This document shows positions 25,399-27,391 of a DNA stretch of 64,000 bases, piece by piece; the first letter of the stretch is position 1, and each line of letters starts with the position of its first letter. The DNA is taken from positions 1-64,000 of the IMG/VR virus record IMGVR_UViG_3300049460_000371; one strand, 5' to 3'. A program made the translations under genes and the position numbers. This DNA comes from a virus. The notes below the pieces were generated by a model. The model was not told where the DNA came from. It saw only the letters and a list, made by a program, of their open reading frames with translations, and made no database searches.

Positions 25399-25661
25399 CC
25401 ATTCCTGTTTCGTACGTCCGTGGTGTATTCAAATCAGTCACTGGTGCTGACGTAAACGATATTGTGATGTTCCTGTCGAGCGACCCCAAGAACGCATGGC
25501 TGCCTCGTAAGGTGAAAGCTGACACCCCATATCGTATCGTGTCTGTCGATGCACAGGGTTGGACTCGTTTCATGAAATCCACATCGCACACTAGTATCGC
25601 GGGCTGCGAACCCATCCAGAACGGACGATACGTGATTGTTGCCCGCAATGTCCCGCACTAA
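25395..25661 (+). CDS. hypothetical protein
   Basis: ATGA coupling. Confidence 0.7.
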   Translation: MTIPVSYVRGVFKSVTGADVNDIVMFLSSDPKNAWLPRKVKADTPYRIVSVDAQGWTRFMKSTSHTSIAGCEPIQNGRYVIVARNVPH

Positions 25662-25698
25662 ATAGTTCTTGATGGTACATGATTAATCATGTACCATC
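25659..25698 (+). promoter_or_regulatory. late promoter TAAATA followed by a perfect 28-bp palindrome
   Basis: TAAATA 25659-25664; GATGGTACATGATT-AATCATGTACCATC 25671-25698. Confidence 0.65.
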
Positions 25699-25721
25699 TT
25701 TACCTCAACAAGGAGAACGTT

Positions 25722-25784
25722 ATGAAACGCATAATCGAAATTCGTGGCGCCGAAGGTGGCCAAGATTTCACTGACGTTTCTTAA
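25722..25784 (+). pseudogene. orphaned original 5' end of the release factor gene (MKRIIEIRGAEGGQD...)
   Basis: AAGGAG RBS; first 13 residues identical to those encoded from 26717; cut off by the endonuclease gene. Confidence 0.85.
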
Positions 25785-26637
25785 GCATCTTCAATTCTGG
25801 GTTCGTGCGTTCAGTAATACGAACCAAGTTTTCCTGTTTAAAATTGCGCACAATTGCTTGTAAGCAATAGCCGTACTGCGTGGCTATCTCTGTCCAAATA
25901 ACACCGGACAACCTCATTTCGTTCATATTTTCTAATTCAACTTTTGGTATAGTCAACTTGTTGCTTGGTTCCATACCTTTCTTGAACTGAAAGCCATGGA
26001 GCTTATAGTTTTTCTGTCTATGAGCGATAGCCTCGTCAAAACGATCTTTACCAACTATTTCTATTAGTGGTTTCTGGAGTGTTGTGCCTATTTTGGCTTT
26101 AATATTTTCGGATTTTTCTCCATATATTTCTTGATGTGTTTTATCTTTCAAACGGGCAGAAGCATTATCTTTGATTATTTTGGCTCGCTCTTCACCATAT
26201 TTTTCCACTAGAGTTTTTGACATGGCCGTGCGTACTTGATTCTTGTATTCGTCAGTGTGCATAGTATAACCAGGTTTTCCTTTATTCCATGGTGTTCTTC
26301 CAACAATACCTGAAACACCATCTCCACCATTGGTTTTGTTGTGTAAGCAACCAGTGCCCAAATCAATTCTACCGAAATATGATATCCAGTATTCTTCAAG
26401 CATGAATGCTGTTTCTTCTGGAATATTAGTTTCTATGAAGACGATCTGATCCATATTACTTGGTATTCCTATAGAATGATTATTAGAATATGCGCGTTTA
26501 CCCTTACCCTTCCCAATATAGTAAGGGCTTCCACGATCACCTCTTGGTGAATCATGTTCACGTTTATACATGTAGACGTAGTAACTTGGTGTTAAGTCGT
26601 AGCTGGAATTGGCGTTTGAATTGCCATAAATAGACAT
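25768..26637 (-). mobile_element. free-standing GIY-YIG homing endonuclease with NUMOD3-like repeats
   Basis: YYVYMY..PYYIGKG..R, E..AF.LE, NKTNGGDG, PWNKGK..HTDEYK; AT-rich relative to flanks. Confidence 0.88.
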
Positions 26638-26704
26638 AGCTGATACTCCATGTTAGTATTAGAGCAGTTAGGAATTCCCGTTCCGTGAACTGCACAATAT
26701 TTAT
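26626..26704. promoter_or_regulatory. face-to-face late promoters with a central stem-loop
   Basis: ATAAATA on + at 26626-26632 and on - at 26704-26698; stem GCAGTT/AACTGC with inner GGAA/TTCC 26664-26693. Confidence 0.65.
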
Positions 26705-26716
26705 CAAGGAGCTAAT

Positions 26717-27391
26717 ATGAAAAGAATTATTGAAATAAGAGGAGCTGAGGGCGGAGCCGATGCTCGACTGTTCGCTGCCGATCTGGCAAAAGCATACATC
26801 AAGCACGCATCCCGCGTCGGATGAATCAATCACCTCACCGATAACGGTGACGGCAATATCACCATCGAAATAACTGGTGATGATCTCTCAAAACTAGACA
26901 ATGAAGCAGGCGGACATCGCATCCAGCGTGTGCCACCAACTGAACGCAAAGGTCGCGTCCACACCAGTACGGTAACCGTATCTGTGGTCGAACCCAAGAA
27001 AGCTCAGACTATCGAGTTCAATGAAAAAGACTTCTCGATTGAATGGTATTCTGGTACAGGTGCTGGTGGGCAACATCGCAACAAACATCAGAACTCATGT
27101 CGCATCACACACTTGGCTTCAGGTATTGTTGCTACTGCACAAACGAGAAGTCGCATCAACTCGTTGGATGAGGCAAAGACTGCCATCTTGGCAAAGTTGA
27201 ATGCTGGTGCTTCAGCGGATGAGCAATCGCGGCAATCAAGTGAACGATTGAGTCAAACTGGTTCCGGTATGCGTGGCGACAAGACTCGCACTTACCGTTT
27301 CCAGGAAGATCAAGTGAAGGATCACATGACGGACAAATCAGCTTCCATCAGTAAAGTAATGGCTGGTAATTTTCACTTGCTCTGGCGTTAA
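26717..27391 (+). CDS. prfA: RF1-like peptide chain release factor lacking domain 1, with in-frame UGA at codon 36 (26822-26824)
   Basis: IEIRGAEGG..ARLFAADL, HRIQRVPPTE.KGRVHTS (PxT), GAGGQHRNK (GGQ), RTYRF..D.V.DH; both halves in one frame. Confidence 0.88.

Follow-up and report, generated by a model that had tools for sequence, protein, structure and literature searches.

A probable GIY-YIG-like endonuclease cassette in the 5' end of a phage release factor gene, with the apparently native start left as a stub

Endonuclease genes that settle inside a conserved gene and bring along a new end for it are known from yeast nuclei and fungal mitochondria. Here we describe a locus of related design in a phage, an endonuclease gene lodged in the 5' end of a release factor (RF) gene, within a stretch of 64,000 nucleotides (positions 1 to 64,000 of IMG/VR virus record IMGVR_UViG_3300049460_000371; hereafter the window). 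Among the closest described systems are the WHO elements of Torulaspora and Lachancea, which target FBA1 and whose unit consists of an endonuclease and a gene end that confers resistance; for Who6, experiments demonstrated both cleavage and resistance (Coughlan et al. 2020, eLife, PMC7282813). As set out in the parts of that paper used here, the endonuclease lies between a full-length gene whose end has been replaced and a displaced fragment carrying the old end, which acts as the second homology arm in the model, and diverse endonucleases repeatedly invade the one gene. The RF locus has the same layout. The WHO elements differ in that the end they replace is the 3' one, the gene is nuclear and from yeast, and the enzyme is an intein-derived LAGLIDADG-zinc-finger protein, whereas the RF cassette concerns the 5' end, encodes a GIY-YIG-like enzyme, has a phage as its host, occurs in both orientations and is known here from sequence alone. 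Since it is the 5' end that is replaced, the RF cassette must also supply a ribosome-binding site (RBS) and a start codon.

The mobile open reading frames (mORFs) of fungal mitochondria, reported from atp6 of Allomyces macrogynus and from atp6, atp9, cox2 and nad3 of Glomus (Beaudet et al. 2013, PMC3630166), resemble the RF locus in a similar way. In the portions of that report drawn on here, a LAGLIDADG or GIY-YIG open reading frame (ORF) lies inside a gene together with a foreign gene end, and the native end persists as a displaced duplicate; in DNA the inserted end is 64-81% identical to the native one, and in protein it is far closer, as at the RF gene. The mORFs replace the C-terminus, with a same-strand ORF that is often in frame, and belong to an organelle, whereas at the RF locus the N-terminus is involved, the ORF is antisense and the genome is that of a phage. 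T4-like phages, in turn, carry free-standing endonuclease genes such as mobE in Aeh1 nrdA, mobA in gene 60/39 and seg43(25) in gene 43, and here too a free-standing GIY-YIG or HNH gene interrupts a conserved coding region with no intron or intein involved (review, PMC2988022). These invasions split the gene into two polypeptides that reassemble, and the part of that source used here describes no duplicated, replaced end; the part available of a preprint on gene 60 (10.1101/2022.08.31.505936) makes no mention of duplication either. The RF needs no reassembly because its whole N-terminus is supplied again.

As far as the two fungal reports describe it, the end-replacement design is not new in principle, and the RF locus matches both WHO elements (PMC7282813) and fungal mORFs (PMC3630166). 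No published phage case of a replaced gene 5' end was found in the literature searched, with subscription journals and supplements outside its view. What is apparently new here is the 5'-end version, in a phage, with a GIY-YIG enzyme, in both orientations and in a translation-factor gene. We propose, with a probability of roughly three in four (0.75), that a free-standing homing endonuclease cassette of GIY-YIG type and about 1 kb (~25767-26767) entered an RF1-like gene of an uncultured giant phage at codon 15-17.

The two starts of the release factor gene

The start of the RF gene is present twice in the window. Copy 1 begins with the ATG at 25722, 6 nt after an AAGGAG, and its codons 1-15 translate to MKRIIEIRGAEGGQD; beyond codon 15 the frame continues as FTDVS and ends at a TAA (25782-84), leaving a stub of 20 codons. 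Copy 2 begins with the ATG at 26717, again after an AAGGAG, translates to MKRIIEIRGAEGGAD and is continuous with the RF gene, so that the working N-terminus reads MKRIIEIRGAEGGADARLF... Between the two lies the endonuclease gene, on the opposite strand as the sequence-only reading had stated; its stop falls one base beyond codon 15 of copy 1, and 17 bases are common to the gene and the stub ORF. Both starts encode MKRIIEIRGAEGG. A recount confirmed that these 13 residues are identical in the two copies and that 12 of 39 bases and 10 of 13 codons differ, where the maximum number of synonymous differences is 14. When copy 1 was held fixed and respelled at random with synonymous codons, the mean was 7.1 differences and 12 or more were reached with P = 0.004 under window codon usage, 0.006 under endonuclease usage and 0.06 under uniform usage, which makes chance respelling unlikely. 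Codon 15 (GAT) is common to both copies, and codon 14 is CAA in copy 1 and GCC in copy 2.

For comparison we used the best 80 of 254 IMG/VR relatives of the RF gene (loci L003-L082), which lie on giant-phage contigs of up to 524 kb. A scan for the N-terminal motif found it once in each of these 80 loci and twice in the window only. The working ORF aligns with the relatives from residue 1 to 223-224, and the first ~20 codons, in which the cassette sits, are highly conserved (consensus ...GCNGAAGGCGG..., at least 90% at most positions). The gene, earlier described as split, is therefore not divided into two working parts: the ORF from 26717 is complete from residue 1, the stub adds nothing that is missing, and a genes-in-pieces arrangement does not apply. 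The gene is RF1-like, with the PPT motif and GGQ present and domain 1 absent, and it has an in-frame TGA at codon 36. All 90 of 90 distinct relatives (loci L003-L082 and L165-L239) have this TGA, almost always following Gly, at a position that we take to be Trp in cellular release factors. Judged from these alignments, the in-frame TGA is shared throughout the family rather than being a fault of the window copy. An endonuclease cassette inside the RF 5' end, with the native start left as a stub and no splicing needed, is supported by the composition, the codon usage, the likeness of copy 1 to the closest relative, the Rfam result and three further loci, all described below.

Splicing was considered all the same, since a join of 25766 to 26762 would preserve the frame and an intron with an antisense endonuclease gene could then connect copy 1 to codon 16 onward. 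We regard this as highly improbable. An Rfam search of both strands of 25400-27000 found no group I, group II or other intron RNA family at E <= 1, in agreement with the earlier statement that the locus has no intron signature, and its sole match was a chance miRNA (E 0.3). Moreover, copy 2 has its own AAGGAG and in-frame ATG, which an intron would not need, and the sense-oriented relatives described below carry stop codons after the stub. An intein is excluded because the endonuclease ORF is antisense. It is just as improbable that the locus is an assembly chimera, in which RF alleles of two strains were joined around an unrelated endonuclease gene. The stretch does occur in a single sequencing run only, a DNA run that may be its source, with no RNA run listed as containing it, and the Logan unitigs of that run break within the endonuclease at 26500-26526. 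Nevertheless, the two junctions each lie well inside a separate Logan contig of the run with 0 differences, the same genes are called on a 205-kb contig, and the architecture is repeated in three other assemblies. No alternative joint was found in the Logan contigs of the run, though contigs drop rare variants.

Base composition distinguishes the two copies. The GC content of copy 1 is 0.51, against 0.486 for the RF body and 0.48 for the window, whereas copy 2 has 0.385, close to that of the spacer before it (0.39) and of the endonuclease gene (0.38); across the insert GC drops to 0.31-0.43, compared with ~0.5 in the flanks. Copy 2 uses AGA twice and GGA twice, codons that make up 4% of the Arg and 9% of the Gly codons in the window (window codon usage was taken from 53 long ORFs). 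Endonuclease usage gives it a log-likelihood (lnL) of -13.8, 6.2 units better than the -20.0 of window usage, while copy 1 fits both equally (-11.2 with window and -11.5 with endonuclease usage). The claim that copy 2 is AT-rich and shares the codons of the endonuclease thus held up. Comparison with the closest RF relative seen (L003, 70% protein identity) points the same way. Over 46 nt, copy 1 has 39 matches to the RF 5' end of L003 and shares its rare Gly9 and Gln14; Gln14 was seen in 1 of 84 distinct alleles, that of L003, and is shared by copy 1 and not by copy 2. This homology stops at 25767-70, and the RF body is L003-like again from codon 18. Differences from L003 number 7 in 45 nt for copy 1, 18 in 51 for codons 1-17 of copy 2 and 13 in 54 for codons 18-35 of the body; the resulting contrast, 84% likeness for copy 1 against 65-71% for copy 2, is marginal (Fisher p = 0.05).

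On composition and on this comparison, copy 1 looks native and copy 2 looks imported with the endonuclease. The foreign tract probably reaches codon 17 and probably changed the protein as well, by Q14A and, going by L003, by S16A and K17R. With a tract of this length that includes Q14A, the replacement is not purely synonymous: its description as synonymously recoded is right for the first 13 codons and wrong for residue 14 and likely for residues 16-17. The polarity could also be the reverse, with copy 2 native and uninterrupted and an intergenic endonuclease that brought copy 1 as a fragment of a donor RF. AT-rich codons are frequent at gene starts. Free-standing endonuclease genes are, moreover, usually intergenic and co-convert their flanks, as the part used of PMC2988022 has it. 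However, the GC content of copy 1 is genome-like and unlike that of the endonuclease, the two AGA and two GGA codons of copy 2 are rare in the window, and it is copy 1, not copy 2, that shares Gln14 and the 39 of 46 nt with L003. In addition, the stub ATG of one relative (L044, below) overlaps the upstream stop, as a start in the native position would. Reverse polarity is for these reasons quite improbable.

The first 39 nt of the L028 RF allele, which has a GTG start, are the closest of all alleles to copy 2. A special kinship between the two was considered and rejected, since 5% of unrelated allele pairs are as close as these (4 differences in 39).

The features of the locus are collected in Table 1. 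The left edge of the insert is good to ~4 nt, and the right edge lies between ~26750 and 26770. The 87-kb IMG/VR virus record to which the window belongs comes from a rhizosphere sample and contains the endonuclease once.

Table 1. Features of the RF locus, in window positions
Feature	Positions	Strand	Remarks
Stop of upstream small gene	25659-61		The palindrome sits between this stop and the native RF RBS
Perfect palindrome, 28 bp	25671-25698		Opposite-strand self-match; 12-bp stem, TTAA loop; native upstream region
AAGGAG RBS of copy 1	25710-25715	+	Relatives have GGAG-type sites at equal spacing
Stub ORF (copy 1)	25722-25784	+	Native codons 1-15 (25722-25766, perhaps to 25770), 5 unrelated codons, TAA
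Putative foreign insert, ~1 kb	25767-26767		Endonuclease gene, 79-bp spacer and RF codons 1-17
Endonuclease gene, 289 aa, intact	25768-26637	-	GGAG 8 nt before ATG (26646-26649 on + strand)
Spacer, 79 bp	26638-26716		Two divergent RBS: endonuclease GGAG and RF AAGGAG (26706-26711); GC 0.39
Apparent replacement 5' end (copy 2), working RF codons 1-17	26717-26767	+	AT-rich codons, rare in the genome
RF1-like gene, 224 codons	26717-27391	+	Pfam PCRF 2.6e-23, RF-1 4e-18; in-frame TGA 26822-26824

The endonuclease and the signals around it

A total of 377 homologues of the endonuclease were found at E <= 0.001. An alignment of 69 sequences has the pattern YVY-x16-YYIGKG-x3-R...E...N, with YVY at residues 20-22 and YYIG at 39-42; all 69 sequences have Y39, Y40, G42, R48, E81 and N100, and at least 90% have Y20 and Y22. 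We equate R48, E81 and N100 with R27, E75 and N90 of I-TevI. A profile of the 69 relatives matches PDB entry 9u75, a 'GIY-YIG domain-containing protein', with E 9e-4, and a profile of 11 relatives matches the UvrC GIY-YIG domain (E 0.034) and the I-TevI DNA-binding domain (0.11). Among the 69 relatives, Pfam detects NUMOD3 in 42 and LEM-3_GIY-YIG in 2; the window protein has one PWNKGK motif, which is NUMOD3-like and below the Pfam threshold. An Atlas feature search gave GIY-YIG and NUMOD3 clusters at 0.93, to be taken as a lead only, and distant GenBank relatives were labelled by their depositors as 'Seg-like homing endonuclease' and 'group I intron endonuclease'. The order of a GIY...YIG...R...E...N core followed by a PWNKGK linker is that of the T4 Seg proteins and I-TevI, from which the window protein differs in falling below Pfam thresholds and in its C-terminal 150 residues, which match no known DNA-binding family. 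For this region, which is common to the homologues P0003 and P0004, the best PDB match was a designed repeat protein (E 0.012) and the best Pfam match had E 0.027. From its conserved residues and its family profile we regard the window protein, with fair confidence, as GIY-YIG-like, and its gene as a probable homing endonuclease gene of NUMOD3 type; the direct GIY-YIG call made for it earlier was not confirmed, since the window protein has no Pfam match of its own.

The nearest homologues are P0003 (47% identity), P0004 (44%) and P0005 (61%, over the N-terminal domain). Searches of viral contigs with P0003 and P0005 yielded no related loci, nor did a search for loci related to the window endonuclease itself. 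The public gene call starts at Met23 (267 aa), which removes the first Tyr residues of the GIY motif. Because P0005 and P0006 share the longer N-terminal extension, Met1 (26637), with its GGAG, is the likelier start.

The insert had been pictured as a cassette that carries a promoter, an RBS and a new N-terminus. It does supply an RBS, a start codon and a diverged 5' end, but the promoter part of this picture was not supported. The TAAATA motif read as a promoter before copy 1 is not enriched in the window (TAAATAG, 6 against 4.6 expected; ATAAATA, 8 against 6.4). Within the cassette, the only sigma70-like match lies at 26631-26659 (9/12), in a region with 5 such sites compared with 4.3 in shuffled sequences. 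No terminator-like site was found in the scanned region. The palindrome in the native upstream region folds into a hairpin of -21.6 kcal/mol (z -4.7, with 0 of 200 shuffles as stable) without a proper T-tract; it is a candidate terminator or processing site.

An ATAAATA-like motif occurs 10-60 nt upstream of the endonuclease start in the window and in three related cassettes (L007, L044 and L036). Two of the eight window copies of ATAAATA lie in one 80-bp stretch, at 26698-26704 (minus strand) and 26626-26632 (plus strand), and there is no window-wide enrichment. The motif presumably resembles the T4 late promoter, TATAAATA.

Recurrence at other release factor genes

Homologues of the endonuclease were detected by tblastn near the RF gene in 9 of the 80 loci. 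In L007, L044 and L036 (with which L037 and L038 are identical) the homologue is the immediate upstream neighbour of the RF gene, in the same orientation, with its final codons overlapping or adjoining the RF start. All three sense-oriented loci have an RF stub of 6-10 codons upstream of the endonuclease and an altered working start downstream of it. In L007 the stub reads MKRIIE, followed by MINN and a stop, and the working RF starts with M-Q-KRILEIR; in L044 MKRVVEL is followed by SINN and a stop, and the working start is MTT-Q-RRIVEIR; in L036 MKKVIEIRSA is followed by 8 codons and a stop, and the working start is MNN-Q-RKIIEIR. The TGA of the L044 stub overlaps the ATG of the endonuclease, and the ATG of the same stub overlaps the stop of the upstream gene, which argues that the stub marks the native start position. 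The stub pattern M[KR][KR][IVLTM][IVLM]E was found once in 471 kb of control loci. The architecture of stub, endonuclease and replacement start is therefore recurrent at the RF gene.

The sense-oriented endonucleases of L044, L036 and L007 are 55-57% identical over their full length, and the RF genes of L036 and L044 are 66% identical. As the endonucleases are less alike than their RF genes, they appear to be a single old lineage, and nothing points to recent transfer. The C-terminal region of the window enzyme is of another kind, and the enzyme clusters with P0003-P0006 and P0009, which suggests that at least two endonuclease lineages use the RF site. A quick FastTree tree of the ~100-aa catalytic domain places the RF-adjacent members on scattered branches. 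The idea that the endonuclease family as a whole is tied to RF genes was rejected, since 0 of the 80 best IMG/VR family loci have an RF gene in the flanks fetched.

All loci other than L007, L036-L038 and L044, 75 of the 80, are without an endonuclease homologue at the RF 5' end. In these insert-free loci the RF gene is contiguous; none is closely related to the window phage, the best having 70% protein identity. A second scan of RF relatives, centred on L036, revealed no closer insert-free sister (next best 69-72%), and homologues of five proteins encoded next to the window RF locus (up88, up134, dn157, dn139 and dn218) were absent from all 80 RF loci. The GenBank relatives of the RF all have less than 60% identity.

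Compared with the consensus, five endonuclease-adjacent alleles differ at bases 1-3 and at base 7 (5 of 5, against 15 of 84). At base 33, the change of GAA to GAG is found in 4 of 5 endonuclease-adjacent alleles and in 5 of 84 alleles (p 2.5e-4), a comparison that is exploratory because alleles are not independent. The departures at bases 7 and 33 are a hint that may bear on the target of the endonuclease.

Other arrangements were seen in the neighbourhood of related RF genes. In L018 the RF (3986-4663) starts with MKNQC-RIIEIR, a start of the cassette type with an inserted Gln; it has no stub and no adjacent endonuclease, and the nearest endonuclease homologue (2101-2730) lies 1.3 kb upstream. 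This start may be a scar of endonuclease loss. L034 has a different GIY-YIG-looking ORF (878-1477, 199 aa) ~250 nt upstream of its RF (1757-2416), whose start lacks Arg3 (MKILEIR), and a homologue of the window endonuclease ~600 nt downstream. In L028 an endonuclease homologue of 255 aa (4736-5503) is located 66 nt past the RF stop, before an SmpB-like ORF. Endonuclease genes seem to be drawn to the RF neighbourhood. In L044 (2417-2660) and L007 (2585-2780), ORFs upstream of the sense cassettes translate to tRNA-like strings (…GSNP…), which suggests that tRNA genes may lie near the RF locus in these two phages.

Proposed route of insertion and its meaning

Several results weigh against the proposal that copy 2 arrived with the endonuclease, in addition to the marginal contrast with L003. 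Gly9 is rare: apart from the two copies it occurs only in L003 and L040 among 84 other alleles, and a degenerate-pattern search found the same 13-residue peptide in 0 IMG/VR contigs; a random foreign donor is therefore unlikely. Either the donor was closely related and unsampled, or residue 9 was changed later, or copy 2 diverged in place; one of these must hold. Unrelated allele pairs differ most often at 9 bases (range 0-21), so that 12 differences in 39 are within their range and are not by themselves proof of selection for divergence. The codon argument is weakened because AT-rich and rare codons are common at gene starts generally. A close insert-free relative with copy 1 joined directly to the body had been predicted, and none was found in the IMG/VR or GenBank-phage searches; blastn of 25300-27500 against GenBank phages gave no match, and the upstream 134-aa protein found only itself as a homologue. 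As for the endonuclease, the window protein matches 0 Pfam families at E <= 0.01 (the best match at E <= 10 is unrelated, at 0.13), and the nearest full-length homologues, P0003 and P0004, could not be placed in a genomic context, a search of metagenome contigs with P0004 having given two distant matches only.

Some of these points would fit a duplication in place, in which the endonuclease was inserted with a local copy of the first 15 codons and copy 2 then diverged synonymously under selection against self-cleavage or repeat recombination. The two copies would then share their 13 residues, with the rare Gly9 in a peptide known from no IMG/VR contig, by descent, and 12 of the 14 possible synonymous differences have been realised, above random respelling (P 0.004-0.06). 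We nonetheless hold this to be unlikely. It would need 12 substitutions in 39 nt, all of them synonymous, while the unselected copy 1 stayed L003-like; copy 2, spacer and endonuclease share one low GC content; and the amino acids at codons 14, 16 and 17 depart from those of copy 1 or of L003. The published analogues, moreover, take the replaced end from a donor, as described in the parts of those reports used here.

According to the reading we prefer, entry of a cassette from outside, the cassette would consist of the antisense endonuclease gene, the 79-bp spacer with an RBS in each direction, and foreign RF codons 1-17. The RF protein would now be made from the cassette start at 26717, and the native RBS and 15 codons would remain as a dead stub. 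By analogy, the enzyme would cut insert-free RF alleles within the conserved first ~20 codons, and the break would be repaired from a cassette-bearing genome, with the RF body as one homology arm and, for the second, either the stub or an illegitimate join. The differing spelling of the replacement start would keep the restored gene from rebuilding the target of the enzyme. Since the window endonuclease is inverted, it cannot use the signals of its host gene; transcription of the RF itself may come by read-through from upstream or from a putative promoter in the spacer.

A broader version of this proposal is possible, and we offer it tentatively, as somewhat doubtful. The first ~20 codons of the RF gene would be a recurrent landing pad on which GIY-YIG cassettes of at least two lineages act as 'cut and re-head' units. 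The native codons left in the stub would serve as the left homology arm and, in the sense-oriented forms, also as a brief leader ORF through which the endonuclease borrows the promoter and ribosome loading of the host gene, as the TGA/ATG overlap in L044 might indicate. The start and RBS of the cassette would move together with the endonuclease and immunise each gene newly invaded, alleles of the L018 type would be scars of invasion, and endonuclease traffic would shape the 5' ends of the family.

For gene calling, the locus carries a warning that a short 'orphan' ORF beside an endonuclease gene may be a gene start that was displaced, and the start of such a hybrid gene may have a history unlike that of the rest of it. 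The presumed conserved target, together with a natural and putatively resistant allele, would make a simple test pair for a new GIY-YIG specificity. The RF has been rescued rather than destroyed, which fits a functional RF despite the conserved in-frame UGA. More generally, the locus shows a way for a homing endonuclease to inhabit an important, conserved phage gene without a self-splicing intron or an intein: a spare, differently spelled start with its own RBS is the means of living inside the gene. This 5'-end version in a phage extends a principle known from 3' ends in yeast nuclei and fungal mitochondria.

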